Shown here one piece after another: positions 50,323 to 63,168 of a DNA stretch of 64,000 nt. Within the stretch, counting starts at the first letter, position 1. The number at the start of each line of letters is the position of its first letter. The DNA lies in the sequence record OQ718158.1; one strand, 5' to 3'. The notes beneath the pieces were generated by a model that was not told the origin of the DNA, made no database searches, and saw only the letters and a list, made by a program, of their open reading frames with translations. Made by a program: the position numbers and the translations under genes. This stretch comes from Escherichia phage vB_Ec-M-J.

Positions 50323-50407
50323 AAAAGTACTTGCAAAGTAAATCGAATAAAGTATAATACATTACATCAAGGGGAGAAATGGTTCTCCCCACTACAAGGA
50401 AACTAAA

Positions 50408-50551: not shown

Positions 50552-50569
50552 AATATTATCACAGTACTA

Positions 50570-50598
50570 TTGACATAGTTTGATAGTACTGGCATAAT
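50570..50598 (+). promoter_or_regulatory. class-B promoter (TTGACA-N17-CATAAT flanked by AGTACT)
   Basis: CAGTACTATTGACATAGTTTGATAGTACTGGCATAAT; repeated at 50864, about 53706 and about 61900. Confidence 0.65.
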
Positions 50599-50631
50599 AG
50601 ATTTTATCAAGACAACTAAGAGGAAACAATA

Positions 50632-50844
50632 ATGGCTATCATCACAAAAATCAAAGTTAACAAATCACTGGTTAAACTTGAACAAGTGAAAGCAGGTTAT
50701 AAAGTATCGTGGTGCGGTATGTATCGGATGTTCACCGATATAGACAATGCAATCAAGTACTACACTGACACCGTTGCCTCATTCGTTCGTGCTGATGTGG
50801 TTATGGCAGTGGCAACGCACAAAGCAGCGAAAGAAAGTAAGTAA
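50632..50844 (+). CDS. small early-type ORF (hypothetical)
   Basis: behind class-B promoter TTGACA-N17-CATAAT; AAGAGGAAAC RBS. Confidence 0.55.
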   Translation: MAIITKIKVNKSLVKLEQVKAGYKVSWCGMYRMFTDIDNAIKYYTDTVASFVRADVVMAVATHKAAKESK

Positions 50845-50863
50845 AAATATTATCACAGTACTA

Positions 50864-50892
50864 TTGACATAGTTTGATAGTACTGGCATAAT
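50864..50892 (+). promoter_or_regulatory. class-B promoter
   Basis: identical block to 50570..50598. Confidence 0.65.
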
Positions 50893-50933
50893 AGATTTTA
50901 TCAAGACAACATATTAATTTAAGGAATACAAAA

Positions 50934-51257
50934 ATGGCTAAAACTATCATTAACACCGTTTCCCTGGCTGCAATCCGTGCAATCAATGTTGACGGTAAAC
51001 GTTGGACTGATTCATATGGCAATACTTATCATTCTTGTCATGTAAGCGTTGAACTGGATAACGGTTTGAATGATCTGGCGGTTGAATCATTTACTTATGG
51101 CTATGAAGATGCATATCAACAAACGGCGTTATCTCTCTTAAAGGAATCAGTAGACGGGCTTAATACTGATGAAACCTCCCTTACTCGTGTGTGCAATGAT
51201 CTTAATATCCCGTTGCATTGTACTGTACAGAATGTTAAACGCAAAAAAGATCTTTAA
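50934..51257 (+). CDS. small early-type ORF, paralog of 57431..57754
   Basis: shared RWTDSYGNTYHSCHVS and C-terminal VKRKKDL. Confidence 0.65.
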   Translation: MAKTIINTVSLAAIRAINVDGKRWTDSYGNTYHSCHVSVELDNGLNDLAVESFTYGYEDAYQQTALSLLKESVDGLNTDETSLTRVCNDLNIPLHCTVQNVKRKKDL

Positions 51258-51336
51258 TTAGCTTTACTTTATGCAGATACTTTGATATAGTGTCTGCATA
51301 GGGGAAAGAAATTAAACTACTTAAGAGGATCGTATA

Positions 51337-51606
51337 ATGAAAAATATCAGTACTTTAATCGATGCAGGTACTCATGTTCGTCGGTCTATGGTTGCAACCA
51401 GTACTACAAAACAAGTAGCGAGCGGTTATCTTGTATTTGTGCACGATGGTAAACTCCTGGAACGTTCAATCAATTTTGATGTTAAAAACAATTGCCGTTT
51501 TATTATCTTTAAGCGTGAGCAATATAAAATTGATTTACCAGCAAAGCCCATTAGTGGGGCGTACAACGTGCAATCATTGTTTGAACGTCAACCATACACC
51601 TATTAA
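51337..51606 (+). CDS. small ORF (hypothetical)
   Basis: 89-aa track ORF; AAGAGGA RBS. Confidence 0.55.
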   Translation: MKNISTLIDAGTHVRRSMVATSTTKQVASGYLVFVHDGKLLERSINFDVKNNCRFIIFKREQYKIDLPAKPISGAYNVQSLFERQPYTY

Positions 51607-51657
51607 TCAAAACATCGTTAGCGGTCGATTCAGGCCGCTTATATTGGGGATTATACC

Positions 51658-51930
51658 ATGAACGTTAATCAAGTACTGAATGAGATCGAAAGCATCATTA
51701 AACCGATGAAGCGTACTGATGCTATGTTAACACCGGAAGAATGCCGCCTTTATGAGCGTTACAGCGTCGAACAAGTCCAGGCAATGGCTATGGCTACCCC
51801 AGCCGTTAAACCGCCTGAGAATGCGTTACAGGACGTTACAGGGGATTATATCATCAATCCAGTACTAGGGAAGATGGCTGCAATCACCGAAGATCAACAA
51901 GACTACTTAAGCCAGTACTTAAAAGGTTAA
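51658..51930 (+). CDS. small ORF (hypothetical)
   Basis: 90-aa track ORF; GGGG RBS. Confidence 0.5.
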   Translation: MNVNQVLNEIESIIKPMKRTDAMLTPEECRLYERYSVEQVQAMAMATPAVKPPENALQDVTGDYIINPVLGKMAAITEDQQDYLSQYLKG

Positions 51931-51935
51931 TTAAT

Positions 51936-52145
51936 ATGCTTACTGTACAGGATAAGATCGACATCTTAAAGGTTAATATGTATGTGATTGATGCAGTACC
52001 TGGTAAAGTATTTGCCTACGATGACACCACTGTAAGCGATTTCTACTATAGCCAGGCCGTGGGGGATCTTTCTGTACAGTCGGTTATTGAAAACGTAGTT
52101 AATGCAGCGTATGAGCATTTACTTTCAAATAGTACTTGCAATTAG
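51936..52145 (+). CDS. small ORF (hypothetical)
   Basis: 69-aa ORF; stop falls inside next promoter. Confidence 0.5.
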   Translation: MLTVQDKIDILKVNMYVIDAVPGKVFAYDDTTVSDFYYSQAVGDLSVQSVIENVVNAAYEHLLSNSTCN

Positions 52146-52214
52146 TTTTTAAACGCGTATAATGTTTTACATGAAGGGGAGAAATGATTCTCCCCACTAA
52201 TTAAGGAATATGAA

Positions 52215-52361
52215 ATGAAAGCATCAAAAAAGAGTACTAACAAGAAAGCACGTTCAACCTTAGATGGGGTATTCCCTTTACGTTTCGTTGATGAAGTGGT
52301 TTCCTACCCGCCTGGCCTTACTCCTGAGATGGTAGAAAGTTTGCGTAAATCTAAAAAATAG
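52215..52361 (+). CDS. small basic ORF (48 aa)
   Basis: hand-found ORF below track threshold; own promoter and hairpin. Confidence 0.45.
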   Translation: MKASKKSTNKKARSTLDGVFPLRFVDEVVSYPPGLTPEMVESLRKSKK

Positions 52362-52442
52362 TACTTGCAATTAGTTTTTAGTACTGTATAATGTTTTACA
52401 TGAAGGGGAGAAATGATTCTCCCCAATAACAGGAGAAACAAA

Positions 52443-52595
52443 ATGAAACAATACAACGCTCGGTTTGATGTTACTATCGGTAACGGCAAAGGTCAATTCT
52501 CTTTCAGTACTCGCAAAAGTTATACAGAAAACTTCCTGCGTAATTGTGCACTGACCGCCGCACAAATTAAACATTACTTTCAGGCTAAAAAATGA
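52443..52595 (+). CDS. small ORF (50 aa)
   Basis: track ORF trimmed to ATG after promoter and hairpin. Confidence 0.5.
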   Translation: MKQYNARFDVTIGNGKGQFSFSTRKSYTENFLRNCALTAAQIKHYFQAKK

Positions 52596-52681
52596 AATCA
52601 TTAGCTTACTATAGTTCTGCGGTGATCGGTGCATTGATCGCGGCGTTGTTAGTAACCTATCTATTCTTTATGGTGATTTAA

Positions 52682-52825
52682 ATGAATCCAACAGGTTTAA
52701 ACTATAAAAGTTGTTCGGCGTTTACGAAAGCAAATAAAGCGAATGCACGTAAAGCGAAAGTACAGGAATACATCAAGCAAGGCATGACGCGAAAAGCGGC
52801 GATTATAAAAGCTAAAAATAAATGA
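52682..52825 (+). CDS. small basic ORF (47 aa)
   Basis: hand-found ORF; preceded by a 29-aa hydrophobic mini-ORF at about 52592..52681. Confidence 0.4.
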   Translation: MNPTGLNYKSCSAFTKANKANARKAKVQEYIKQGMTRKAAIIKAKNK

Positions 52826-52831
52826 AAAAAG

Positions 52832-52862
52832 TGGTTGACTCCGGTCAGCCATTTTGCTATTA
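52832..52862 (+). terminator. fused terminator-promoter module, UCCG-loop variant
   Basis: GGTTGAC-TCCG-GTCAGCC then TTTTGCTATTATAT. Confidence 0.55.
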
Positions 52863-53036
52863 TATATTCATTGAGAGATAGCTCACTAGCCCACAGGGTG
52901 CATAAGTGTATCTATTATATGAGTATTGAGTACTGAAAACTATTTTTAAAAAGTACTTGCAAACTATCTCAATAAGCGTATAATGTTTTACATCGAGAGG
53001 GGGAAACGGTTTCCCCTGGTAATAAGGAAACAAATC

Positions 53037-53378
53037 ATGACTATCTCAATTGCTCAATCTAACTTTGAAAATGAAATCATCGCCCAGGCACTGCGTTTAA
53101 ATGATGGTCGGGCCGAAATTAATTACGGTTTCAATTCAGGCGGTTGCGAAAACTATCAGTACTTTGTAACGGCTGATGGCGGTGTCCTGGGTATCAATAC
53201 AGTTATTGTAAACATCCAAAAAATTAATTTCAATGATCCAGACGATAGCCAGTTTTACATCACTGGCGTAGACGTGAACTATGAGGATGACTCACTAACT
53301 GATGATCACACTGGCGAGCGGTTAGAAAGTGCATACGGTGAAGATGATTATCAGTCCGGTCCAGAAGATTTCGAATAA
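53037..53378 (+). CDS. small acidic early-type ORF
   Basis: track ORF trimmed to ATG after promoter and hairpin. Confidence 0.55.
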   Translation: MTISIAQSNFENEIIAQALRLNDGRAEINYGFNSGGCENYQYFVTADGGVLGINTVIVNIQKINFNDPDDSQFYITGVDVNYEDDSLTDDHTGERLESAYGEDDYQSGPEDFE

Positions 53379-53473
53379 TATAAAAAATAGTTTGACAATA
53401 GATTATAGTACTGTATAATTAATTACATCAAGGGGAGAAAAACTTCTCCCCACTAACAGAGAGAGAAAACAAA

Positions 53474-53686
53474 ATGGCTAATATCCGGTCGAAATTAAAA
53501 AATGCAAAACAAGTTTTATTTTCAGATCATGAATACTTTAATAAAGATATTACAGGAGTTACAAGTATCAAGGAAGTAAAAGAAAAAACCGGCGTTTTGT
53601 GTGATGTGCGATTAGTTGGGACATTTGGGAATAACGTGCTATATCGCTGCGGTGATTACAATTTTACACTGACTATCATTAACTAA
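53474..53686 (+). CDS. small early-type ORF (hypothetical)
   Basis: behind TTGACA-variant promoter and hairpin. Confidence 0.55.
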   Translation: MANIRSKLKNAKQVLFSDHEYFNKDITGVTSIKEVKEKTGVLCDVRLVGTFGNNVLYRCGDYNFTLTIIN

Positions 53687-53769
53687 AAATATTATCACAG
53701 TACTATTGACATAGTTTGATAGTACTGACATAATAACTTTTATCAACTACACTACTAAGGAATTAAAAA

Positions 53770-53949
53770 ATGGCTATCATCGCAAAAACTGAAATCGTTG
53801 GTCTGGATTCTATCATCATGACGTTTGAAGATCAAAAAGGTATGTATGTAGTTTCCTATGGTGATTATGTTCGGGAGTATGAAACGGTAGACGAAGCCTT
53901 TGAAAGTTATATTCGCCAGGTGAATAAAGCATACGACGACTACCGCTAA
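53770..53949 (+). CDS. small ORF (59 aa), loosely similar to 50632..50844
   Basis: hand-found ORF below track threshold; behind class-B promoter; N-terminal MAII. Confidence 0.45.
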   Translation: MAIIAKTEIVGLDSIIMTFEDQKGMYVVSYGDYVREYETVDEAFESYIRQVNKAYDDYR

Positions 53950-54048
53950 AATATATTACCAGTACTATTAAATCTATTGACAACGTTTGATAGTACTGTA
54001 TAATAAGTTTTATAAACAGTAGTTAACTTAACCTAAGAGAGAAACAAA

Positions 54049-54192
54049 ATGATCGCACTGGATTCATTCATCGACGCAGTACTGGCAAAAACTGGCGAGG
54101 ATCTGACCGCAGAACAATACGCGATGATCGAGCAATGTCAGCAAAACGGTAAATCGGTGAAAGATACTGTTAAGATTATCCGCAAGATGTAA
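54049..54192 (+). CDS. small ORF (47 aa)
   Basis: hand-found ORF; class-B-like promoter upstream; terminator hairpin downstream. Confidence 0.4.
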   Translation: MIALDSFIDAVLAKTGEDLTAEQYAMIEQCQQNGKSVKDTVKIIRKM

Positions 54193-54198
54193 TATTAT

Positions 54199-54226
54199 AG
54201 CCCACTGGTTAACGCTGGTGGGCTTT
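54199..54226 (+). terminator. terminator-like hairpin containing a Chi octamer
   Basis: AGCCCACTGGTTAACGCTGGTGGGCT then TTT. Confidence 0.5.
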
Positions 54227-54297
54227 AATCATTTACCCTATACAATGCCAGTACTAAACCGTTTATCTCGTTAGAATGCGTTACAGGACGTTTGACA

Positions 54298-54495
54298 ATG
54301 ATTAGCATGAAATCAGTACAAAAACAAATAGAAACATTATCAAAAATTAAACGTAAACAATACTCGTTAGAATATACAATCAATGGTAACTATCATCTAA
54401 TGAAAGAAAATAATTTTATAGTCATTGATGAATCATTGCAAGTTATTAGTATAGTACTGAAAGCATTAATTAATGATAGAAAAAAATTAAAATAA
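54298..54495 (+). CDS. small AT-rich ORF (hypothetical)
   Basis: track ORF (TTG) trimmed to ATG; composition differs from neighbours. Confidence 0.4.
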   Translation: MISMKSVQKQIETLSKIKRKQYSLEYTINGNYHLMKENNFIVIDESLQVISIVLKALINDRKKLK

Positions 54496-54823
54496 TTGTT
54501 GACATACAATGCCAGTACTGGCATAATACTTACATCAAGACGAGAACGTCACTAACCCATAGGGTGCACAAATGTAACTATATAATATCGATCAATAAAT
54601 GATCAAAAAAGTACTGGATCAATTTAGCATAAGGAGTATAATTCTGATCAATTCTTGATCAAAGGCAATATACGCAGTTGAATTTATATAGACAGTACAA
54701 AGGCGTTACTATCCGTGGTAATGCTGATGGATATGTAGTATCATACGGTTTGAATAAGATAAGCACTAGTAGTATTATTGTAGCATTACAGTACTATAGT
54801 ATTTTTATAATGAGGTTAAAATA

Positions 54824-55081
54824 ATGGCTGTTGGATTCGCGAAGGACGGGGCCGAGCAAGACGAGATTAACGCAGTTATTCAGGCCGCTGTAAACCACGC
54901 TAGAACGCAAATTAACGCACAAATAGAATCACTGATACATTGCCTCGACTGTGGCGATAAAATCCCTGAGAATCGCCGCCAGGTCGTTAAGGGGTGTAAG
55001 TACTGTATCACTTGCCAGGAGGATCATGATAGTACTTTTAAACGTCAACCGCGTAATTGTTGGCATAGATCTATGAGATAA
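54824..55081 (+). CDS. TraR/DksA-family-like C4 zinc-finger protein
   Basis: CLDCG...(17 aa)...CITCQ, the CxxC-N17-CxxC spacing typical of TraR/DksA. Confidence 0.55.
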   Translation: MAVGFAKDGAEQDEINAVIQAAVNHARTQINAQIESLIHCLDCGDKIPENRRQVVKGCKYCITCQEDHDSTFKRQPRNCWHRSMR

Positions 55082-55144
55082 AAAGTATTGACAGTACTAT
55101 CCAGTAGTGTATAATGTTTTATATCTTAACTGAGGATAGAAATC

Positions 55145-55501
55145 ATGGGAATACAACATATCACGCGTACTACTGACAATGGCGAGATCACTGGCTATCA
55201 AGTACAGGGCAAAGTAGCACAATTGCAGTACTGGTTTGTTAAACGTGGAATCATTGCACCGGATCTTGATTATGACCGTGTAGCGTTTATTGATTCTCTT
55301 TATGTTGATCCTGATAGTCGGGGGAATGGTGAAGGTAACGAATTAATGAATGCCTTTATTGATGCCGCCGATGATTCAGATTGTATCATCTTAGAATGCG
55401 ATACGGGAGAAGATAACGCCTTTAATCTTAAAGAATGGTATGAAGGTTTCGGATTCGAGGTACTGATCGATAGTGAATATCCTATCATGATTTTATCATA
55501 G
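55145..55501 (+). CDS. small GNAT-like acetyltransferase (putative)
   Basis: LYVDPDSRGNGEGNELMNAFIDAA resembles GNAT acetyl-CoA-binding motif A. Confidence 0.4.
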   Translation: MGIQHITRTTDNGEITGYQVQGKVAQLQYWFVKRGIIAPDLDYDRVAFIDSLYVDPDSRGNGEGNELMNAFIDAADDSDCIILECDTGEDNAFNLKEWYEGFGFEVLIDSEYPIMILS

Positions 55502-55580
55502 TACTTGCATTTAGTTTTCAGTACTGTATAATAGTTTACATGAAGGGGAGAATAGTTCTCCCCACTACAAGGAAAGACAA

Positions 55581-55769
55581 ATGGAAAACTTATCAAGTAT
55601 TTTAGTACAAGATGATTTCGGTAATCCTGGAAGTGCTATCATTGTTCGGGGTAATAAAGCAACGTTTGTTATTGCTGGTGGACCCGTACAGCGTAGCATT
55701 AAAAATAATGCTGTTACCATTAATAATGTACGCTATCGCTTAGATAAAGAATTAATTCATAAACTGTAA
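55581..55769 (+). CDS. small early-type ORF (hypothetical)
   Basis: behind class-A promoter and hairpin. Confidence 0.55.
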   Translation: MENLSSILVQDDFGNPGSAIIVRGNKATFVIAGGPVQRSIKNNAVTINNVRYRLDKELIHKL

Positions 55770-55855
55770 AAAAGTACTGGACAATAGATTATAGTACTGT
55801 ATAATAAGTTACATGAAGGGGAGAAAATGATTCTCCCCACTAAGAGGAAAGAAAA

Positions 55856-56068
55856 ATGCAAGGTCAACTAATCGTTCGTAAATGGTCTGATACTAACGCT
55901 AAACCGTGGGATGTACAATACATCGCCCCCAATGGTGAATCCAGATATCAACCAGGTGTAACGCATAGTACTGAGCAATTCGCCGCCGCTCATCGTGAAC
56001 GTCTGTTACAATCAATGCAGCAAGGTTTCGGTGAAAAATTCATTCAGGATCATTGGCTGAAAGATTAA
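55856..56068 (+). CDS. small early-type ORF (hypothetical)
   Basis: behind TTGGACA-type promoter and hairpin. Confidence 0.55.
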   Translation: MQGQLIVRKWSDTNAKPWDVQYIAPNGESRYQPGVTHSTEQFAAAHRERLLQSMQQGFGEKFIQDHWLKD

Positions 56069-56154
56069 AAAGTTCTTGCACAGTACTGAATAAAGTGTAT
56101 AATGTTTTATATCGAGAGGGGAATAGTTCCCCTCCTAACAAAAAGGAAAGTATA

Positions 56155-56328
56155 ATGATCCAAGTAGAATTATCAGTACTGAAAGATCTATTTTATCGGT
56201 TAGGTACTAATGGCGAGTATCCTAAAAGTGATACCGCAAAACTTTTTGTATCACTCGACTTATGGCAACGCGAACAATTAGTAATGTCGTGGCGTAAAGG
56301 TAAAGCAGATCGCGAGGTGAAAGCATGA
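56155..56328 (+). CDS. small early-type ORF (57 aa)
   Basis: track ORF trimmed to ATG after promoter and hairpin. Confidence 0.5.
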   Translation: MIQVELSVLKDLFYRLGTNGEYPKSDTAKLFVSLDLWQREQLVMSWRKGKADREVKA

Positions 56329-56474
56329 AAGAATTCTTATTTGAAGTAGTGTTTCAAGGTGTCGGTAGTAACCAACTGATTCGCTCAAGTGGTTACAATG
56401 TTAACCAGGCATGGAATAACATTAAACAAATGTACCCGAACGCTATCACATATCGCAACCCGAAAGAAGTTTAA
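56325..56474 (+). CDS. small ORF (49 aa), translationally coupled
   Basis: hand-found ORF; ATGA overlap; followed by terminator/promoter module. Confidence 0.45.
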   Translation: MKEFLFEVVFQGVGSNQLIRSSGYNVNQAWNNIKQMYPNAITYRNPKEV

Positions 56475-56488
56475 AAATAATTGAAAAA

Positions 56489-56521
56489 GGGATTGACTCC
56501 GGTCAGTCCCTTTGCTATTAT
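56489..56521 (+). terminator. fused terminator-promoter module, UCCG-loop variant
   Basis: GGGATTGAC-TCCG-GTCAGTCCC then TTTGCTATTATAT. Confidence 0.6.
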
Positions 56522-56656
56522 ATACGCATAGAAACAAATTAGCCCACCGGGTGCATAAATGTATCTATTGTTTGCTGGTGGCTAGTACTATCAAGTACTG
56601 AAAACTATTTTTAAAAAGTACTTGCAAAGTATCACGATAAGCGTATAATGTTTTAC

Positions 56657-56729
56657 ATCAGGACGGGGAACGAAACAAGTAACCCCGTTAAGTAGTCCAG
56701 GAGTAAGACATACGAAAAACTCCCCTGAT
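56657..56729 (+). ncRNA. candidate structured leader or small RNA, copy B
   Basis: about 90% identical to copy A, with stem-preserving differences. Confidence 0.35.
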
Positions 56730-56798
56730 AAAATAGTTTGACAATAGAAAGTAAACGAGTATAATACTTACATCAACCACTGATAAGGAAACATTAAA

Positions 56799-57074
56799 AT
56801 GCGGATTCTACTGACAGCTAACGAAATCGAACAAGTACTGACTACTAACCTGGAAGACTGGAAACGTGAAGCAGATATCCAGGCGGTTCAATGGCTTAAT
56901 GATAAGTTAACGCCGGATGATTTAAGTAAGATTGTAGATCCTCAATTCTACGAAGATATTCACGACACCGCGTTAAGCGTCGAGGATGTACTTGATAAGC
57001 ACTACATTGATACTGATTTACATGTTTACGGTCGTAAAAACTTTATCACTATTCACGACATTTACAATACTTAA
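56799..57074 (+). CDS. small acidic early-type ORF
   Basis: downstream of duplicated dual-promoter cassette. Confidence 0.55.
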   Translation: MRILLTANEIEQVLTTNLEDWKREADIQAVQWLNDKLTPDDLSKIVDPQFYEDIHDTALSVEDVLDKHYIDTDLHVYGRKNFITIHDIYNT

Positions 57075-57160
57075 GTATTGACAAAGTATCTTAGTACTGT
57101 ATAATAGTTTACATCGAGAGGGGAAACGGTTCCCCTCCTAACAAAGAGAGAGAAATAAAA

Positions 57161-57343
57161 ATGGCTAAGTGCACTATCTGCAAGAAAGAAATAGTATTAG
57201 TTCCAAGTGCCCGTGAACGTGCCGCTCGGTTTGGTGGCAAAGCGTCAGACTATACAAAAATGTTTACTGCCCATACAGCTTGCCAGGTAGCAAAACGTTC
57301 ACAAGAAAGCGTAGAATTAATGCGTAAACTTTCCAAAAAATAA
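57161..57343 (+). CDS. small early-type ORF with Cys pairs
   Basis: CTICKK...HTACQ; behind promoter and hairpin. Confidence 0.55.
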   Translation: MAKCTICKKEIVLVPSARERAARFGGKASDYTKMFTAHTACQVAKRSQESVELMRKLSKK

Positions 57344-57430
57344 GTATTGACAAAGTATCTTAGTACTGTATAATAGTTTACATCAAGCGAGGGGAATGGT
57401 TCCCCTCCTAACAAAGAGAGAGAAATAAAA

Positions 57431-57754
57431 ATGGCTATGATCCTTACCCAGAAAGTAGAACTGAAAATTGTAACCTCCTTTGACATTAACGTTAATCGGT
57501 GGACTGATTCACACGGCAATACTTACCACTCTTGCTACGTGTCTGCGTTAATTGGCGACCGCTGGGAAGACCTGGGACACGAAACCTTTACATACGGTTA
57601 CGGTACACAAGGCGAATACACGGGCTTGGAGATCATTAAAGAAACCGTTATAGGTTTCAACCCGAAAGAAAAAGTTATTCACCGCATCGAGGAAGAGATC
57701 AACAAAGAAATAACAGTTCGATACAACGATGTAAAACGTAAGAAAGACATGTAA
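57431..57754 (+). CDS. small early-type ORF, paralog of 50934..51257
   Basis: shared RWTDSHGNTYHSCYVS and VKRKKDM; upstream region duplicated from 57161 gene. Confidence 0.65.
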   Translation: MAMILTQKVELKIVTSFDINVNRWTDSHGNTYHSCYVSALIGDRWEDLGHETFTYGYGTQGEYTGLEIIKETVIGFNPKEKVIHRIEEEINKEITVRYNDVKRKKDM

Positions 57755-57849
57755 TAGAATCCATTTAAAGTACTATTTGACATTGCCCAGATAGTACTTT
57801 ATAATAGACTCTAACTTGTAGTACTAACTCAACTAATAGGATGTATACC

Positions 57850-58245
57850 ATGATTACTAAATTCTACGCTACCCGTGAAGCTGCCCGTATTGTTGCACGC
57901 GAGGAAGGAGCAGCATTTAAAGACATGGGCAAAGATGCACCGAAAGGTCAACGCTGGGCCGTACAGTTCAAAGAAATCTCTGATATTGTGAATTCACCTG
58001 AGCCAGTACTGACAGCAGCAGAACTAAAACGAGCGGATATGCTGGCGGCAATACTTGACGCACAAGATGAGTTTATCGCTGATTCTGATATCAAAGTACA
58101 GGTAAACCACACCGCATGGACTCACGCGGATCACCTGGCAAACCTTAAGCGTCCAAGTGAACTGATTCGCAACCAGAAAGAGATCCGACACGACCGTAAG
58201 GGTAATCGTGTAACAGTATACAGTAAACGCCGCCAGGTTATCTAA
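57850..58245 (+). CDS. small early-type ORF, paralog of 45336..45602
   Basis: start set by paralog alignment; shared FYATREAARI...RKGNRVTVY; terminator follows. Confidence 0.6.
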   Translation: MITKFYATREAARIVAREEGAAFKDMGKDAPKGQRWAVQFKEISDIVNSPEPVLTAAELKRADMLAAILDAQDEFIADSDIKVQVNHTAWTHADHLANLKRPSELIRNQKEIRHDRKGNRVTVYSKRRQVI

Positions 58246-58267
58246 TAACTTGCAGTACTAACAACAC

Positions 58268-58292
58268 GGCGGGATCAGTTCCCGCCTTTTTT
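58268..58292 (+). terminator. rho-independent terminator
   Basis: GGCGGGATCAGTTCCCGCC then TTTTTT. Confidence 0.7.
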
Positions 58293-58306
58293 ATAGGACA
58301 AACAAC

Positions 58307-58561
58307 ATGATTAAGGTTCAACTATCAAACGATAATGTATTACGGGTACACTATAAAGCACCTCAGAGAATCATCACAAAGGCCGTACAGCTTGCTAATG
58401 AGTTTATTAATGGTAACCTATTACCTAGGAAGTTAAGCAACGGGAAACTGCGTGTAATCGACGTGGACACTAACAACAGGATAGTAATCGAGAACACAGG
58501 AAAGATAAACCTTTATGAGCATCAACAATACAATAAGAAAATAAAACTAATATCACGTTGA
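58307..58561 (+). CDS. small ORF (hypothetical)
   Basis: 84-aa track ORF; AGGA RBS. Confidence 0.5.
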   Translation: MIKVQLSNDNVLRVHYKAPQRIITKAVQLANEFINGNLLPRKLSNGKLRVIDVDTNNRIVIENTGKINLYEHQQYNKKIKLISR

Positions 58562-58614
58562 CAGTACTCAATTGTTTTAGTACTATGTACACATACCAAC
58601 ACGGGAGAAACAAA

Positions 58615-58833
58615 ATGAAATTATCTAAAATCGAAAAGAAAACTATTGATGAAGCAGTTAAGCACGGTTATACCTTTCGTAATGATTCACATTTTACCAA
58701 TTTTCAACAAGGGTATCGTACTATTAAAAAACTAATTGACAAAGGTTTATTAGTTGAAGTCAATAACGGTAACGGTATCGAGTATCAACCAACACAGGAC
58801 GCATTTTATTTTAAGAAATATAATATTATCTAA
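58615..58833 (+). CDS. small ORF, promoter-duplicate partner of 58891..59133
   Basis: track ORF trimmed to ATG; identical upstream TTGACA promoter block. Confidence 0.5.
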   Translation: MKLSKIEKKTIDEAVKHGYTFRNDSHFTNFQQGYRTIKKLIDKGLLVEVNNGNGIEYQPTQDAFYFKKYNII

Positions 58834-58890
58834 TTGACAGTACTCAAATGTTTTAGTACTATATGTACATACCAACACGGGGGAAACAAA

Positions 58891-59133
58891 ATGATTACTT
58901 TAGAAAAACGTATCAAAGAAACTACATCGCTGGTGGAACTGTTAACAGTACTCAAATGTAAAACAACACCATTCAGCACGCCGGACTTTATTAATATGGT
59001 TGATGTTAATGGTCGCTATCGTATCACGGTCGAACAAGGAGCGGCGAAAGTATTCAGTACTAAAAACACTAAGGAAGTGATCCACGCCGTTAATGTTAAA
59101 AAAGTAGTTGCCATTGATAGTAAAGTACTGTAA
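58891..59133 (+). CDS. small ORF, promoter-duplicate partner of 58615..58833
   Basis: track ORF trimmed to ATG after GGGGGAAAC. Confidence 0.5.
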   Translation: MITLEKRIKETTSLVELLTVLKCKTTPFSTPDFINMVDVNGRYRITVEQGAAKVFSTKNTKEVIHAVNVKKVVAIDSKVL

Positions 59134-59164
59134 TATAGTTTCATTAACTCAAGGAGAACATGCA

Positions 59165-59749
59165 ATGCGTAATTATACTAAATTCATCCGTACACTGTCA
59201 GAAATGGAAACCAACAAAGAGATCCTTTCAGCTTGTCGGTTAGCTGGACTGGAGATCATCGGTGCTGGTTCTTCCCGTATAGTATTCGCTTTAAATGATC
59301 GGTTAGTGATTAAGGTCGCGAATTGTGATGCGGGTGTAGAACAAAATGAAACTGAATGTAAGGTATGGAATTTTTTAGACTATGACCGCCCTCAGTTGAA
59401 ACAGTACTTTGCAAAGGTGCATATGCATTTATGCGATCCTGATAATATGTTTATCGTTATGGATCGGTTGAGTACTGCAAGTAAAGGCAGTGTGAAGCAC
59501 GTTAACGCGTGCAATGAATTAAAGTACAATATTAAACGTAATGCAATTGAACGCCAGCACCGCTTTGCTGATGCACTACAACACGTCGATGATACATTAT
59601 CAACACTAACGATAAGAGATATCAGAAAACAGAATATCGGCCAGGATCGTAATGGCCTTATTAAAGTACTTGATTACGGTTTAACCTGCAATATCTGGAA
59701 TCAGTACTATAAAAAGCGTGATGTGGCAGCAAGTAAGGTAACACGATAA
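59165..59749 (+). CDS. mini protein-kinase-like protein (putative)
   Basis: IGAGSSRIVF (Gly loop), VIKVA (Lys), IRDIRKQNIG (catalytic loop), KVLDYG (DFG-like); AAGGAG RBS. Confidence 0.5.
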   Translation: MRNYTKFIRTLSEMETNKEILSACRLAGLEIIGAGSSRIVFALNDRLVIKVANCDAGVEQNETECKVWNFLDYDRPQLKQYFAKVHMHLCDPDNMFIVMDRLSTASKGSVKHVNACNELKYNIKRNAIERQHRFADALQHVDDTLSTLTIRDIRKQNIGQDRNGLIKVLDYGLTCNIWNQYYKKRDVAASKVTR

Positions 59750-59763
59750 AAAAGATTAAAAAA

Positions 59764-59796
59764 GGGATTGACTCCGGTCAGTCCCTTTGCTATTAT
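59764..59796 (+). terminator. fused terminator-promoter module, UCCG-loop variant
   Basis: identical to module at 56489. Confidence 0.6.
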
Positions 59797-59973
59797 ATAT
59801 TCATTGAGAGATAACTCACTGACCCATAGGGTGCGGAAGTGTATCTATTATATAAGTATTCAGTACTGAAAACTATTTTAAAAAAAAGTACTTGCATTGT
59901 ACTTAGAATCAAGTATAATGTTTTATATCGAGAGGGGGAAATGGTTCTCCCTGGTATATTAAGGAATAAAATC

Positions 59974-60195
59974 ATGACTACAATGACTTGCATTTACGCT
60001 TCCAATCTTCTGAATGATGCGGCCTTTAATGTTGATTCAGAATATCAATGTTATCGGGATGAAAATAAAAAAGTTTTTGTAGTTGATAATAATGGTTTCC
60101 ATATTGAATTACAATCCGGCTTCACTGGCGTTGATGGTAAATCAGTATGGGGCGTACAGGATGATAAAGGTACATATCATTTTAAACGTAATTAA
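59974..60195 (+). CDS. small early-type ORF (hypothetical)
   Basis: track ORF trimmed to ATG after promoter and hairpin. Confidence 0.55.
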   Translation: MTTMTCIYASNLLNDAAFNVDSEYQCYRDENKKVFVVDNNGFHIELQSGFTGVDGKSVWGVQDDKGTYHFKRN

Positions 60196-60278
60196 GTATT
60201 GACAAAGTATCTTAGTACTGTATAATAGTTTACATCAAGGGGAGAATAGTTCTCCCCGATACTAAAAGGAATAAAATC

Positions 60279-60686
60279 ATGACTACTACTAATCAAGCTC
60301 GGTCCATCGCCAACGATAAAAATCATGCTGAAATGGTCGCTGGTTACATTGAAGCTATGCAATTCAGTACTGTACACAATGAGAACGGCGAATACCTGGA
60401 AGATTATGAATTATCAGAGCAAGCCCATCAAGCGGCAGTGATTGCATGTTCACGTTTCCTTGCTGTACATGGTGAAGATATGGAAACAGTACAAAAACAC
60501 CATAATCCTGATTATACTTATAGTCATGCGGGTCATGATCTCTTTCTTACTCGCGAAGGTCACGGCACTGGTTTTTGGGATCGTGATATCGGTCACTATG
60601 ATGATATATTCACTAAGTACTGCGAAGAAATCAACGTTTGCGATCCCTATGTAGGCGATGATAATCTAATCTATATGGGCGAATAA
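60279..60686 (+). CDS. small early-type ORF, His/Asp-rich
   Basis: 135-aa track ORF behind promoter and hairpin. Confidence 0.55.
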   Translation: MTTTNQARSIANDKNHAEMVAGYIEAMQFSTVHNENGEYLEDYELSEQAHQAAVIACSRFLAVHGEDMETVQKHHNPDYTYSHAGHDLFLTREGHGTGFWDRDIGHYDDIFTKYCEEINVCDPYVGDDNLIYMGE

Positions 60687-60773
60687 AAGTATTTGACAAA
60701 GTATATCAGTACTGTATAATAGTTTACATCAAGGGGAGAATAGTTCTCCCCACCAATAAAAGGAAACAAAATT

Positions 60774-61046
60774 ATGTCCAGCTACTCCGCTACTATGATC
60801 ATTAAAGATATGAACGGTAATCCTACTTCTGCTGGTGGATCATTTGGAAACATTAATTTAGATGGTCGGTTATCCATGCAATCAGCCATCGATGCAGCGA
60901 AAGAAGTTTTTAAGAATGAATGTACTGTAAGTAAGCTGGATTATATGGGATTCGCTATCGAAAAAACTAATCGTTTTGTGAACTACAAAAATCCACTGAT
61001 GATCGATACTAACCTGAAAGCAAACGAAGTGGGGTACTTATTATGA
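60774..61046 (+). CDS. small early-type ORF (hypothetical)
   Basis: behind promoter and hairpin. Confidence 0.55.
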   Translation: MSSYSATMIIKDMNGNPTSAGGSFGNINLDGRLSMQSAIDAAKEVFKNECTVSKLDYMGFAIEKTNRFVNYKNPLMIDTNLKANEVGYLL

Positions 61047-61234
61047 CAGTAGAAGAAGTTAAAAAAGTACTGGCAGTACTACGCTATCATAATCATTGCA
61101 AGGTGAAGAATGATCCTGATTATCTCGATTCATCCCTGGAAGAGGATACACTACAAGCAATAAGCCATATGCAAAAAATGCTTAAGCGTATGACCGAAAA
61201 GAATAGGCCGGACTATATCGGAAATAAAATTTAA
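61043..61234 (+). CDS. small ORF, translationally coupled
   Basis: ATGA overlap with upstream gene. Confidence 0.5.
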   Translation: MTVEEVKKVLAVLRYHNHCKVKNDPDYLDSSLEEDTLQAISHMQKMLKRMTEKNRPDYIGNKI

Positions 61235-61321
61235 AAAGTACTTGCATTGTAGTTAGATTAACGTATAATGTTTTATATCGAGAGGGGGAAATGGTTTCCC
61301 CTCAAGTCCAGGAGATACACC

Positions 61322-61585
61322 ATGAACACTATCGAAATCACTATCAATGCACACGTATACGACAACGTAGTACTGCAAACTACTATGACCGCTAATGATA
61401 CCAGTACTTTGCGGAATACTGTTATTAGTGCCGTATGTGCTGCAATCGGTGATGTCGCCCTGGAAAATGCAGAACACATCAACAACGGTTTCACTATGTG
61501 CAAACGTGATAACGCAAAACATATCATCGTAGAAGGTTACGGCGGTGTAGAATTTAATGTTTATATGAAAAAAGTACTTGCATAA
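61322..61585 (+). CDS. small early-type ORF (hypothetical)
   Basis: track ORF trimmed to ATG after promoter and hairpin. Confidence 0.55.
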   Translation: MNTIEITINAHVYDNVVLQTTMTANDTSTLRNTVISAVCAAIGDVALENAEHINNGFTMCKRDNAKHIIVEGYGGVEFNVYMKKVLA

Positions 61586-61652
61586 TAACTAAAACAAAGT
61601 ATAATGTTTTGCATAGGGGGAGATATCCTCCCCCACTAAAAGGAGTAATAAA

Positions 61653-61877
61653 ATGGCTAACTTTGATGAACTGATGCGGGAAGTAGCTAACCTGGCAGAA
61701 GAGAAGAAATCATTCGATTCTATCTATAACACCGCTCACCGTGATTCAGTACTGGCATGTAACCAGGATCAAAAAGATGAACTAATCGCCACCTATCATG
61801 AAGCATGGAAGTACTACCGACAATGGGAGAAAGAAGAAAGTGAGTCTACCATCGAAGGTATCAATAATCTAATCTAA
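61653..61877 (+). CDS. small early-type ORF (hypothetical)
   Basis: behind promoter and hairpin; AAGGAG RBS. Confidence 0.55.
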   Translation: MANFDELMREVANLAEEKKSFDSIYNTAHRDSVLACNQDQKDELIATYHEAWKYYRQWEKEESESTIEGINNLI

Positions 61878-61953
61878 AAGTTTTATTTCAGTACTATTGA
61901 CATAGCTTGATAGTACTGATGTAATAACTTTACTAACTACAAGGGGAAACATA

Positions 61954-62211
61954 ATGGATCAATTCACACAATATCGGGTAAATCCTCAATCTATGGCCTA
62001 CGTAGAAGACCATAAAACGTTACCAGTACTGCAACCAGTTAAAGGCCGTATCTATCGTGGCCTTGCCTGGGATACGGCCCAGGATGGATATAAAACCGTC
62101 GCCGTGGGGATGTATTGCGGGAATGGTGAATGGTTTGATCCTAACAATCCGATTGCACTTGACAGTACTGAAAAAATGAAATGGGCCGACTACATCGAAG
62201 ATATTTCATAA
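61954..62211 (+). CDS. small early-type ORF (hypothetical)
   Basis: behind class-B promoter. Confidence 0.55.
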   Translation: MDQFTQYRVNPQSMAYVEDHKTLPVLQPVKGRIYRGLAWDTAQDGYKTVAVGMYCGNGEWFDPNNPIALDSTEKMKWADYIEDIS

Positions 62212-62301
62212 AAACTATTTGACAGTACTAACCAGTAATGTATAATGTTTTACATAGAGCGGGGGAATAGTTCTCCCGCCAATAGTTTGGAGTTAAACAT
62301 T

Positions 62302-62502
62302 ATGTCTATCGCTATCGCCCTGGTTGAAGTACTGAAAGAAGCTAAAGCCAACCTTATCGATGTACAGATTAAGGAATTGCAAAACGGCTTAATCGGCTGT
62401 ACTTGTACCGCTGGTGGAGCGGCAGACTATCGAGAACACGAATCACTCGAATCACTGGTTCGGTATCTTACCATGATCGTTGATGATTGGAGAATCATCT
62501 AA
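62302..62502 (+). CDS. small early-type ORF (hypothetical)
   Basis: track ORF trimmed to ATG after promoter and hairpin. Confidence 0.5.
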   Translation: MSIAIALVEVLKEAKANLIDVQIKELQNGLIGCTCTAGGAADYREHESLESLVRYLTMIVDDWRII

Positions 62503-62519
62503 CAAAAAAGAATAAAAAA

Positions 62520-62552
62520 GGGATTGACTCCGGTCAGTCCCTTTGCTATTAT
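62520..62552 (+). terminator. fused terminator-promoter module, UCCG-loop variant
   Basis: identical to module at 56489. Confidence 0.6.
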
Positions 62553-62746
62553 ATACGCATAGACAAAAACTAGCCCACAGGGTGCATAAGTGTATCCAAA
62601 ATATATAGTTAATAACGGTGAGTAACTATCTGCTGGTGGAGTGAAAACTATTAATAAAAAAGTATTGACAAAGTATATCAGTACTGCAATAATGTATCTC
62701 GTAGGGCGGCAATGGTGCGACGGCCCACAAAGTTAGGAGCTTCAAA

Positions 62747-63079
62747 ATGACTACTTCAATCGCTATCGTTAAAGCTTTCATCCGTACTAATGTTTCCTCT
62801 GTATTCATCGACGGCCTCGACCGTAACGTAGAATACTCAATCATTATCGCACAAACGGCAAACGGTTCTCGGTACATCCTGAATGATAGTGAAGCAAATC
62901 ACTACTACTTCACTAAAGCCACTGGCTTTAAACGCATCGATGCTGATGTAGTATACGCTAAGATGAATAAGCTGGTAGATAAGATTAACGCTAAAGGTAC
63001 TATAGATTTACAGTACTGGACCGAAACCGATCCAGAATATGGATCTCACCGCTACCTGAATCCAGGTATTAAAATGTAA
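62747..63079 (+). CDS. small early-type ORF (hypothetical)
   Basis: 110-aa track ORF; AGGAG RBS. Confidence 0.55.
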   Translation: MTTSIAIVKAFIRTNVSSVFIDGLDRNVEYSIIIAQTANGSRYILNDSEANHYYFTKATGFKRIDADVVYAKMNKLVDKINAKGTIDLQYWTETDPEYGSHRYLNPGIKM

Positions 63080-63168
63080 AAAGTACTTGCATAGTACTTA
63101 GATTCATGTATAATGTTTTACATAGAGAGGGGGAAATGGTTCTCCCTCCTAAATTAAGGAGTTTTATC

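Follow-up and report, generated by a model that had tools for sequence, protein, structure and literature searches.

A promoter-coupled motif in the terminal repeat of an Asteriusvirus genome and its candidate family of early RNAs

What function could a short sequence serve that recurs on both strands near one end of a jumbo coliphage genome? The window, meaning the whole 64,000-nucleotide stretch analyzed here (OQ718158.1, Escherichia phage vB_Ec-M-J), covers the final 64 kb of an Asteriusvirus genome (121Q/PBECO4-like, a Rak2-like jumbo coliphage). The initial annotation had pointed to a repeated motif following UCCG modules, sometimes as inverted pairs, and had suggested an operator, a structured RNA, or a small mobile or recombination element.

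Eleven units in the terminal repeat

The repeated motif is real. Its core, CCCAYNGGGTGC, occurs as nine exact and two degenerate copies between 43.5 and 62.6 kb, where practically none would be expected by chance, and perfect matches to the full 24-mer, GCCCACAGGGTGCATAAGTGTATC, lie at 52889-52912 and 62573-62596, with a two-mismatch copy at 56542-56565 (expected, 0). Exact plus-strand cores begin at 46005, 52890, 54556, 56543, 59823, and 62574, and the degenerate copies are located at 43734-43745 (plus strand, CTGCTAGGGTGC) and 43791-43802 (minus strand, CCCAGAGGGTGC). The partner half-sites GCACCCGGTGGG described previously exist and are the same motif on the minus strand, where the exact cores occupy 43575-43586, 46062-46073, and 48044-48055. 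The inverted pairs (43734/43791 and 46005/46062) likewise proved genuine, each being two facing, complete promoter-plus-motif units. Other parts of the description needed correction: the copies it gave exist but lie a few nucleotides from the positions listed, its interval started at 52866 and omitted the copies at 43.5 to 48.1 kb although its own text named them, and the location after UCCG modules applies to four of the eleven copies (52890, 56543, 59823, and 62574) but not to the rest. Positions 1 to 43500 contain no copy, and no complementary target of the 12-mer was found elsewhere in the window.

All eleven units fall within the direct terminal repeat (DTR), a 21,525-bp early-gene block at 42476-64000. 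Position 1 of fEgEco12, whose termini were established with PhageTerm and restriction digests (PMC13070987), maps to window position 42476, and the end of its DTR (20,993) maps to 64000; the G17 record likewise has its right end at 42476. Since the DTR is present twice, a packaged genome carries 22 units, 11 in each repeat. A copy in Klebsiella phage Muenster falls within the annotated terminal repeat of that phage as well.

The leftmost units are mostly on the minus strand. Unit 1 (43560-43643, minus strand) has the promoter TTGCTT-16-TATAAT, a 5' hairpin AGTC/GACT, the motif at 43575-43586, and an ACGCCC-type 3' box; it scored 49.3 bits in cmsearch and has a 121Q ortholog at position 11546 of locus L002. 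The degenerate unit 2 (43680-43766, plus strand), with its motif at 43734-43745, converges on unit 3, and its GGGUGC...GUAUCC pairing (P3, described below) plus a U-run across 43739-43758 scored as terminator-like. Unit 3 (43776-43858, minus strand, 46.8 bits) consists of a promoter at 43858-43831 (TTGACT-16-TATAAT), a CGC/GCG hairpin, and the motif at 43791-43802. Units 4 and 5 are also convergent, with the reverse-complement motif of unit 5 located 57 nt from the motif start of unit 4. In unit 4 (45951-46031, plus strand), a promoter at 45951-45979 (TTGACT-17-CATAAT, with TG) precedes a GGC/GCC hairpin, the motif at 46005-46016, and a 3' box extending to 46031, while unit 5 (46047-46123, minus strand; promoter 46123-46095, TTGACA-17-CATAAT; motif 46062-46073) has a short A-rich linker in place of the hairpin. 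Unit 6 (47972-48112, minus strand) is of the stand-alone small-RNA type, with a promoter at 48112-48084, a GAC/GTC hairpin, the motif at 48044-48055, AGTACTG, and at +52 the bidirectional terminator of 48003-47983, read here on its minus-strand side, with a U-rich tail after it. Its predicted RNA of about 100 nt would be antisense to the gene array; 96 nt of the unit are 100% identical in 15 Asteriusvirus records, most of which leave it unannotated.

The remaining units are on the plus strand. Unit 7 (52828-52916, 55.3 bits) begins with a UCCG-loop terminator hairpin at 52828-52855 that contains the -35 element TTGACT; its -10 element, TATTAT, ends at 52863, followed by a TGAG/CTCA hairpin, the motif at 52890-52901, and a 3' box to 52916. 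Unit 8 (54499-54582) has a promoter at 54499-54527 (TTGACA-17-CATAAT), a GACG/CGTC hairpin, and the motif at 54556-54567, and its promoter appears to be the only strong one upstream of an operon encoding a DksA/TraR-like protein (54824-55081). Units 9, 10, and 11 again start with UCCG terminator hairpins: unit 9 (56486-56569; hairpin 56486-56513, embedded promoter 56493-56521) and unit 11 (62517-62600; hairpin 62517-62544, promoter 62524-62552) have short linkers before motifs at 56543-56554 and 62574-62585, and unit 10 (59761-59849, 59.2 bits; hairpin 59761-59788, promoter 59768-59796) has a TGAG/CTCA hairpin before its motif at 59823-59834. Chi sites are present at 56574, directly 3' of unit 9, and at 62632, near unit 11.

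Promoter coupling, genomic settings, and relatives

The motif is consistently coupled to a promoter. A sigma-70-type promoter on the same strand, with its -10 element ending 20 to 30 nt upstream (score of at least 9 of 12), accompanies 94% of 86 distinct copies, compared with 1.6% of random positions drawn from the same loci. A consensus scan independently recovered the unit promoters, the UCCG terminators, and the bidirectional terminators. Units were found in three settings. Leaders account for 35 of 85 distinct units, which lack a terminator and are followed by the next early promoter; these presumably run on into the gene of that promoter, and in several leader units, including the four UCCG units of the window, the -35 element is buried in the terminator hairpin of the preceding gene. 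Stand-alone units would form small-RNA genes of about 100 nt, with an intrinsic terminator starting 48 to 52 nt past the motif start; a terminator begins at this position in 10 units. In the third setting, 28 units face a partner, with the two motifs spaced at a constant 57, 68, or 75 nt, and the convergent RNAs would each end in a long hairpin made of their own motif and the complement of their partner's.

The promoter-plus-motif pattern was found at 23 viral loci in IMG/VR, all from Rak2-like phages of Enterobacterales, situated on Rak2-like jumbo-phage contigs (345 to 378 kb) or on shorter contigs with the same units. We take these contigs to belong to RaK2, 121Q, GAP32, CBB, Serratia, and Yersinia phages. 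Across prokaryote genomes totaling 596 Gb, the pattern gave four chance-level matches in unrelated MAGs and the element itself gave none. As the initial annotation had proposed to check, copies are conserved in position, being syntenic in 121Q (10 copies) and G17 and retained in more distant genera. The 121Q ortholog of the 46005 copy keeps the motif and 3' box, while its 5' hairpin (P1) is wholly replaced; across genera, the 12-mer is invariant and the promoter spacers, P1, and flanks have fully diverged. The suggestion of a mobile element found no support, since the inverted pairs consist of promoter units that converge and occupy syntenic positions, no transposase is present, and the module was not found in 185,579 prokaryote genomes. 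No Rfam family matched, even at an E value of ≤10, and we found no published description of the element in the literature.

Structure of the predicted RNA

Three parts make up the conserved ~55-nt element, namely a 5' hairpin that covaries, a short hairpin of the form R-CCC/GGG-U, and a YRYYY box. The RNA is predicted to start about 7 nt past the -10 element and would usually fold first into P1, a short hairpin with a purine-rich loop. A linker of 3 to 5 nt ending in UAR would separate P1 from P2, a small G-C hairpin composed of R-CCC, a loop of 3 to 4 nt, and GGG-U, then GC. The box RGARRU-N-YRYYY-AU would follow, and its YRYYY could pair with GGGUG in place of CCC (P3), giving GGG two possible partners. 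An AU-rich tail, usually containing AGUACU, would complete the module.

P1 is represented by more than 14 different complementary stems, and its four pairs all show compensatory changes (covariation score of 0.331, against at most 0.09 in slid registers and 0.144 in shuffles); in an alignment that had been fitted to the model structure, G-U combinations outnumbered A-C ones 13 to 3. P2 was predicted by RNAalifold, with a near-invariant stem showing two C-G to U-A double changes, loops of AYA, AGA, UAGA, UAUA, UUUA, or AUUA, and a closing pair of A-U or G-U. Because the CCC/GGG stem is almost invariant, its pairing rests on few divergent copies. For P3, 88% of cells were paired in the same fitted alignment, compared with 34 to 65% in slid registers, and all variation was between GC and GU or between UA and UG; this one-sided variation is what supports P3, and sequence conservation could produce the same pattern. 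Mean energies were -3.7 kcal/mol for P2 and -2.5 kcal/mol for P3, the latter being stronger in 41 of 85 units and energetically weak in AUCCGUCU-type boxes. Single units folded no better than shuffled sequence. Stretches with convergent pairs folded with z values of about -4 because each pair is two complete facing promoter-plus-motif units. Taken together, the structured-RNA option gained support from the fixed orientation relative to the unit's own promoter, the covariation in P1, the compensatory CCC/GGG changes with a variable loop, and variation that is wobble compatible on the transcribed strand only.

Weighing the explanations

The explanation we favor, and consider rather probable on this comparative evidence, is that the motif forms the invariant center of a ~55-nt transcribed module, to which a strong sigma-70-type promoter is firmly attached, and that the modules constitute an undescribed family of immediate-early non-coding RNAs and leaders, probably recognized by a protein. 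A DNA operator or roadblock seems unlikely to us; here a protein of the phage or host would bind the duplex 12-mer, alone or together with the 3' box, just past the start site and would shut off or pause this early promoter subclass. The primary sequence is indeed invariant beyond mere upkeep of pairing, its position is always promoter proximal, and a Fur-box-like palindrome between convergent units in several relatives places protein sites in this neighborhood. A classical operator is nevertheless unsupported by an element that lacks symmetry (TAR-CCC...GGG-TGC with the 3' box on one side only) and always points in the direction of transcription, whose distance from the -10 element varies by up to 10 nt (20 to 30 nt) via an inserted covarying hairpin, whose substitutions are wobble compatible on the RNA strand only, and whose loop length of 3 or 4 nt goes with compensatory stem changes. 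We give about the same low probability to a cis-acting elongation-control signal, in which the nascent hairpin and downstream box would pause RNA polymerase or load a factor and thereby decide between read-through and stop at the early-block terminators. Like lambda nut (boxA/boxB) and HK022 put, the units place short RNA hairpin elements just 3' of phage early promoters in terminator-rich early regions, ahead of genes when in leaders, with a stem conserved as sequence and presumably read by a protein or RNA polymerase. The elemental pause consensus is G-10/Y-1/G+1, and GG at +7/+8 with U at +17 (91% conserved), then G in 52%, fits it; the alternative P2/P3 pairing resembles an attenuator, and P3 plus a U-run forms the terminator-like site of unit 2. 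At least 10 units, however, run into a strong terminator at a constant position of +48 to +52 with nothing downstream to regulate, and 28 further units face a partner, arrangements that a processive antiterminator would defeat. The stem of 3 to 4 bp with a loop of 3 to 4 nt also differs from the 5-bp stem and GNRA-like pentaloop of boxB, each repeat has about 11 copies instead of 2, no boxA was found, and the DTR showed no protein resembling N, Q, or NusG. Lambda Q at pR' and RfaH ops are comparable as conserved early-transcribed elements of about 12 nt, co-oriented with transcription and possibly forming a small hairpin, but the motif has no sequence similarity to ops or Q-binding sites, its distance from the start site is variable, and the evidence points, indirectly, to RNA over non-template DNA.

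T4-type phages carry comparable composite repeats, the PeSL (promoter-early stem-loop) cassettes (Arbiol et al. 2010, PMC2839356; Comeau et al. 2014, PMC4122927): terminator hairpins with early sigma-70 promoters between small ORFs in a hyperplastic early region, paralogous within one genome, and with some mosaic borders at cassettes. The units differ in having the -35 element inside the terminator hairpin, in occurring also without that hairpin, on either strand, and as convergent pairs, and in carrying a conserved transcribed module 3' of the promoter, which we did not see described for PeSLs in the part of PMC4122927 covered. A PeSL-like recombination cassette, with a functionless motif carried in a terminator/promoter repeat homogenized by gene conversion and serving as a crossover point for gene shuffling, would account for the ~200-nt paralogous cassettes (terminator, unit, and next promoter) that are 76 to 87% identical within the genome and for several homology blocks in relatives that start or end at units (window ~52804, ~62600, and 62651/62718). 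We find it quite unlikely, since an invariant 12-mer amid fully diverged promoter spacers, P1, and flanks indicates selection on the motif rather than homogenization, and most mosaic borders are at other early promoters (AAAAAGTACTTGCAA type). Least probable by our estimate, and very improbable, is a promoter for a phage-encoded sigma factor with CCCACA/GGGTGC as the -35-like element and TATWAT at +23 to +28 as the -10. Rak2-like phages do encode an RpoD-like sigma factor (PMC5259590, PMC11895373), and the motif lies a fixed 17 nt from the TATWAT-like stretch. Against this, only 52% of units have T at +28, a sigma-70 promoter is always coupled upstream, stand-alone units would yield transcripts of only about 20 to 40 nt, and the motif is confined to the DTR rather than preceding middle or late genes, with no copy in the remaining 42 kb of the window or in the rest of a 50-kb 121Q stretch.

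The favored reading of a transcribed, protein-recognized module also has counterparts among small RNAs. Stand-alone units have a promoter, 5' hairpin, and intrinsic terminator, as bacterial sRNA genes do, although no base-pairing target of their RNAs was found. The related jumbo phage PA5oct highly expresses ncRNA001/002 in its terminal repeat (PMC7318152). Both systems have ORF-free transcription units within the long terminal repeat of a Rak2-related jumbo phage relying on host RNA polymerase, but the predicted RNAs here are about 100 nt rather than 236 to 451 nt, and the covariance model detected none of the units over the initial 40 kb of PA5oct, a stretch that includes its terminal repeat. 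Because all 11 units lie in the early-gene DTR, host RNA polymerase would be expected to fire their promoters in the first minutes of infection; we infer start sites, RNA ends, and abundance alike. A sequence-specific RNA-binding protein would be expected to read an unvarying stem and flanks around a free loop, so the element may be a protein-recognition site, possibly with two states; a search of 53 DTR ORFs detected no RNA-binding, antiterminator, or nuclease domain. Such an element would mark or regulate part of the immediate-early transcripts in cis and, where expressed alone, may give rise to an early non-coding RNA that is abundant and is bound by that same protein.

Promoter-coupled units in the terminal repeat

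The repeated motif proposed in the initial annotation was borne out, with the 24-mer found exactly at two sites and with two mismatches at a third, against 0 expected. Its 12-mer core, CCCAYNGGGTGC, is exact at six plus-strand and three minus-strand sites in the window, and two more, both degenerate, are at 43734 (+) and 43791 (-); nothing resembling the motif was detected at 1-43500. The positions first listed were broadly right, although small corrections were needed. Sites described as partner half-sites do exist, but they are the same motif read on the opposite strand rather than separate elements. The two stretches reported as inverted pairs are also present and fold well (z of about -4), and each consists of two whole promoter-plus-motif units in convergent arrangement. 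A position after UCCG modules holds for four copies (units at 52828, 56486, 59761, and 62517) but not for the remaining seven.

When the copies were aligned, a TTGAC(A/T)-N16-17-(T/C)AT(A/T)AT promoter was apparent upstream of each on the same strand, and a consensus scanner recovered these promoters independently. Among 86 distinct copies from the window and related phages, 94% have a promoter scoring at least 9/12 whose -10 element ends 20 to 30 nt upstream, compared with 1.6% of positions drawn at random from those loci. Each of the four UCCG units has its -35 element TTGACT embedded in a stem-loop that the scanner scores as the terminator of the preceding gene. Unit 8 (motif at 54556-54567, plus strand) appears to be the sole strong promoter upstream of a DksA/TraR-like operon.

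The 11 kb surrounding the motif are 89 to 97% identical to Asteriusvirus jumbo coliphages (121Q, PBECO4, G17, fEgEco12, Sharanji, and others). The Rak2-like group, which includes these phages, uses the host RNA polymerase and has a direct terminal repeat (DTR) of ~20 kb (PMC5259590, PMC11895373, PMC13070987), and the termini of fEgEco12 were established with PhageTerm and restriction digests (PMC13070987). In our alignment, position 1 of fEgEco12 corresponds to window position 42476 and its DTR end (20,993) to 64000, and the G17 record, too, has its right end at 42476; because of these correspondences, we assign 42476-64000 (21,525 bp) as the DTR. The window ends where the DTR ends, presumably at the right end of the genome. 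The repeat length given for vB_Ec-M-J is likewise 21,525 bp (PMC13070987).

The DTR is a dense plus-strand array of ~55 small ORFs, where promoter-like sites number 103 with 67 expected (11 of them perfect TTGACA/TATAAT pairs in the consensus scan) and terminator-like sites number 23 with 11.5 expected. Scanning 53 DTR ORFs with Pfam and PHROG returned a DksA/TraR zinc finger, a GNAT acetyltransferase, a ParE-like toxin domain, a weak protein-kinase match, and DUF7249 (twice), the ORFs with recognizable domains including 54824-55081, 55145-55501, and 59165-59749. The rest matched solely phage families of unknown function, and neither scan identified an RNA-binding protein partner among the 53. 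Isolation of Rak2-like jumbo phages (121Q, PBECO4, RaK2, GAP32, CBB, and relatives) for therapy is proceeding in large numbers, and annotation of their ~21-kb terminal repeats consists only of dozens of "hypothetical proteins."

Positional conservation, whose absence the initial annotation had named as part of a refutation, is seen in relatives: the 50 kb of 121Q that were examined contain ten copies and no others, all at syntenic positions, and a 9-kb stretch of G17 contains the three orthologues expected. In unit 6 (minus strand, motif at 48044-48055), 96 nt show 100% identity across 15 Asteriusvirus genomes, most of which leave them unannotated. When 2.9 million viral contigs were scanned for the combined pattern of motif, spacing, -10, and -35, 23 loci emerged; all are on contigs of 345 to 378 kb, which by length we take to be RaK2, 121Q, GAP32, CBB, and Serratia and Yersinia phages, or on shorter contigs that carry these units. 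Matches in CBB are duplicated, as a DTR would predict, a copy in Klebsiella phage Muenster lies inside the annotated terminal repeat, and copies fall inside the terminal repeat wherever that repeat could be located. The promoter-plus-motif pattern gave only four chance-level matches in prokaryotes (596 Gb), all in unrelated MAGs, and the element itself gave none in 185,579 prokaryote genomes (GTDB representatives); a copy in host genomes was rejected on these results. Rak2-like phages that infect Enterobacterales have this module as a signature, and the simple combination of promoter and CCCAYNGGGTGC has so far picked out this phage group only.

Predicted RNA structure and context of the units

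Position-specific counts from 56 nonredundant units revealed conservation from about -11 to +26, counted from the first C of the motif, with a consensus that reads AAA, (c)TAR, an invariant CCCA-Y-A-GGGTGC, and RGARRT-N-YRTCTAT. Ninety matches were obtained with a covariance model constructed from 41 units, and pairs were counted in an alignment fitted to the model structure. In that alignment, the hairpin between the start site and the motif (P1) shows compensatory changes in four of four pairs and a covariation score of 0.331, compared with at most 0.09 in slid registers and 0.144 in shuffles. More than 14 distinct complementary stems occur at P1 (including GGC/GCC, GAG/CUC, GACG/CGUC, AGACA/UGUCU, CCAC/GUGG, and GGAG/CUCC), and an A-rich linker takes its place in about one-quarter of units. 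P1 is wholly replaced in the 121Q orthologue of the 46005 unit, which retains the motif and the 3' box.

The motif itself is predicted to fold as R-CCC/GGG-U (P2), which is the RNAalifold consensus. Its closing pair is A-U or G-U, a C-G pair has become U-A in two copies, and divergent copies carry AGA, UAGA, UAUA, UUUA, or AUUA loops. In an alternative pairing (P3), GGGUG(C) could bind a YRYYY box that occupies +19 to +23; the paired fraction of cells is 88%, compared with 34 to 65% in slid registers, and all substitutions are GC to GU or UA to UG exchanges in either direction. This support is one-sided. Mean energies are -3.7 kcal/mol for P2 and -2.5 kcal/mol for P3, and P3 is the stronger in 41 of 85 units. 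Boxes of the AUCCGUCU type leave P3 weak, and a local AGA-UCCG-UCU hairpin forms in its place. The 3' box might also have paired with the 5' end or the P1 loop (AGAUA/UAUCU); this was set aside as a general feature, being found in some units and lacking in many, and a mutual-information scan gave no consistent pairing partner for this box.

In P1, G-U pairs are far more frequent than A-C (13 versus 3), and this excess, together with the A-U or G-U closing pair of P2, is specific to the transcribed strand and points to RNA rather than duplex DNA. Single units were no more stable than shuffled sequence, indicating that whole-unit thermodynamic stability is not the signal. An operator, a structured RNA, and a mobile element had all been proposed at the outset; wobble-type variation and P1 covariation argue for the RNA, and neither a dimeric operator nor a mobile element fits the copies.

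Among 85 distinct units, 35 are of a leader type in which the next early promoter comes after the unit, and 28 belong to convergent pairs in which the partner motif starts exactly 57, 68, or 75 nt past the unit's own motif start. Ten run into a strict intrinsic terminator starting at +48 to +52, and the remaining 12 were unclassified, some with weaker terminators. Of the 85 units, 57 contain AGTAC between +28 and +55. Unit 6 (48112-47972, minus strand) is of the stand-alone type, antisense to the gene array, and relies on the minus-strand side of a bidirectional terminator. Units also cast doubt on overlapping ORF calls: a 59-amino-acid ORF at 43607-43786 (+) spans units 1 and 2, and annotated 121Q gp270 (13583-13768 of the 121Q stretch, L002) spans a convergent pair. 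Neither has an obvious ribosome-binding site, promoters on the two strands overlap each of them, and they are probably not genes.

Other repeats and sites in the region

Six plus-strand copies of GTAATCA flank the DTR boundary on both sides, three at 42326-42374 and three at 42547-42573. Over the window as a whole the heptamer shows no enrichment, and the cluster could be a terminase or end-recognition array. An 8-nt periodic array (GGCTAGAY / GGCTAAAC, ~20 repeats, family D10) occupies 43232-43391 within the ORF-free first 1.7 kb of the DTR; it is faced by the minus-strand units at 43575 and 43791 and recalls the short-repeat arrays adjoining the terminal repeats of T7-type phages.

AGTACT, a palindrome, is found 288 times in the window against ~22 expected, most densely at 36000-64000, and CAGTACTG occurs 61 times against 0.7. 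It lies directly upstream of the -10 element in many early promoters (cAGTACTGtATAAT) and, as ttCAGTACTGaaaa, in the interval from a unit to the promoter or terminator that follows it. The excess of this 6- to 8-bp palindrome suggests a binding or modification site. Chi (GCTGGTGG) is present 15 times against 0.67 expected, at 43063-62639 and also at 9718 and 23288-24209. A run of eight plus-oriented copies lies within 49.9-62.7 kb of the DTR, two of them directly after units (56574 and 62632), and this orientation is the one recognized by RecBCD entering at the 64000 end. In loci from related phages (L001 to L025), Chi or its complement is often found in the unit-promoter spacer.

Several relatives have a Fur-box-like palindrome (AATGATAATCATT; GAGAATGATAATGATTCTC) at the center of convergent unit pairs (L003 2792-2872 and 8050-8137; L005 1248-1335; L006 ~1060-1100; L007 ~320-360; L020 3082-3169; L025 6060-6140). 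GAGAATGATAATGATTCTC matches 16 of 19 positions of the Fur consensus, and the window pair at 46005/46062 has no such palindrome.

The main early promoter class (family D3, 24 copies at 44138-63123) reads AAAAAGTACTTGCAA-N-TATAAT-gttttACAT. Downstream of most of these promoters comes a 5'-UTR hairpin whose stems covary and whose loop is conserved (GGGGAGAAAUGGUUCUCCCC, GCGGGAACACUUCCCGC, among others), with a ribosome-binding site after it, and mosaic borders against 121Q fall mostly at this class. A second ORF-free repeat (D18) is found at 46203-46280 and 56657-56735, 89% identical over 100 nt, with a related stretch at 49212-49270. An early promoter of the main class transcribes it, and it folds (z of -1.3 and -2.5) as a stem closed by AUCAGG...CCUGAU that encloses two hairpins. 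It is a candidate for another early noncoding RNA.

Alternative explanations and significance

No Rfam family reached the gathering score anywhere in the window (CRISPR-DR, riboswitches, ribozymes, and known sRNAs included), none of the four weak matches at E ≤ 10 in 52800-56700 overlapped any of the three units there, and ARAGORN detected no tRNA or tmRNA. Likeness to tmRNA had been suggested by a similarity to GCGAAACCCAAGGUGCAUG in ssrA, and was dropped when local alignments of four units to Escherichia coli ssrA scored no better than shuffled sequence. A CRISPR-repeat mimic or RNA anti-CRISPR is likewise unsupported, with no CRISPR-DR family at E ≤ 10 in 52800-56700; by eye, units share 17 of 28 identities with the type I-F repeat, but the stem register and loop size differ. 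A leader peptide was rejected because no more than about half of units have AUG or GUG at +16 to +18, other units having AUC, GUC, GUA, or UUA among their codons there, and one unit stops immediately after its start (AUG UAA). As to a trans target within the phage, the window contains no complement of the 12-mer outside the units, even with G-U pairs allowed. Base-pairing sRNAs of the Hfq type have their own promoter, a Rho-independent terminator, no ORF, and a conserved seed that pairs with target mRNAs; the first three of these features fit the stand-alone subset, such as 48112-47972 (-), but not the leader type. No match to the motif in any orientation was found in the literature searched, and published accounts of CBB, Sharanji, fEgEco12, and PA5oct do not mention it. 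The terminal repeat of Pseudomonas phage PA5oct does encode highly expressed noncoding RNAs (PMC7318152), but these are unrelated in sequence to the units, and the covariance model found no unit in the first 40 kb of that phage, which covers the repeat.

We consider it fairly probable that the units form a transcribed module, a family of leaders and small RNAs of the immediate-early phase that have in common a hairpin for recognition by a protein, possibly with a second fold; its specific role may be that of a decoy, a tag, or a switch. That the motif is instead a DNA operator seems unlikely, given its asymmetry, its variable distance from the promoter, and its RNA-type substitutions. The operator of a dimeric repressor would be expected to show dyad symmetry and independence of orientation, but the flanks differ (TAR versus TGC), the 3' box is one-sided, and unit orientation always equals promoter orientation. 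An elongation signal resembling nut, put, or ops would suit the leader units and could involve a G-10/Y-1/G+1 pause at +17, but it clashes with units running directly into a terminator or a partner unit, and we regard it as improbable. Lambda nut sites combine a boxB with a 5-bp stem and 5-nt GNRA-like loop with a preceding boxA (CGCUCUUUA-like). The units differ in their R-CCC/GGG-U stem and 3- to 4-nt loop, and AAA and UAR are the only conserved positions upstream of the motif, with no boxA-like CGCUCUUUA. For the 10 units with a terminator at +48 to +52 and for the 28 convergent units, context also argues against processive antitermination of the lambda nut or HK022 put kind, in which polymerase would pass through terminators downstream.

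PeSL cassettes of T4-type phages join a terminator-like stem-loop to an early sigma-70 promoter and are repeated between small ORFs, as in the four UCCG units, whereas the other seven units have a promoter without the hairpin. The UCCG terminator-promoter part can be likened to these elements (PMC4122927, PMC2839356). Copies of PeSLs also mark borders at which close relatives differ by insertion, deletion, or replacement. A PeSL-like recombination cassette carrying the motif as a passenger would account for paralogous cassettes of ~200 nt and for the few mosaic borders between relatives at units (~52804, ~62600, and 62651/62718 in the window, most borders lying at the other early promoter class). 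We think this very unlikely, however, since the 12-mer is invariant across genera while its flanks have diverged. A MITE or other mobile element is not indicated, as the inverted arms are whole promoter-plus-motif units (family I10), syntenic in 121Q and G17, and no transposase domain was found among the DTR ORFs. The least credible alternative, a promoter for a phage sigma factor, fails on distribution and can be nearly dismissed.

Within the transcribed-module interpretation, a rather doubtful but more specific proposal is a novel type of RNA-based host-takeover device. Host polymerase would produce a two-state P2/P3 small RNA in bulk from ~22 promoters in the two terminal repeats during the first minutes of infection, sequestering or redirecting a host factor such as a defense sensor, a ribonuclease, or an RNA-polymerase accessory protein. 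Convergent pairs would then deliberately give double-stranded RNA or a collision-based insulation of early operons.

The repeats carry a conserved, unannotated, promoter-coupled module, predicted to act as RNA, whose conservation is about equal to the strongest in the region; for the RNA module downstream of the promoter, we found no described counterpart. If expressed as predicted, its RNAs would be some of the earliest and most plentiful products of infection, and they would therefore open a direct way to study how a giant phage reliant on host polymerase organizes its immediate-early program or disarms its host.
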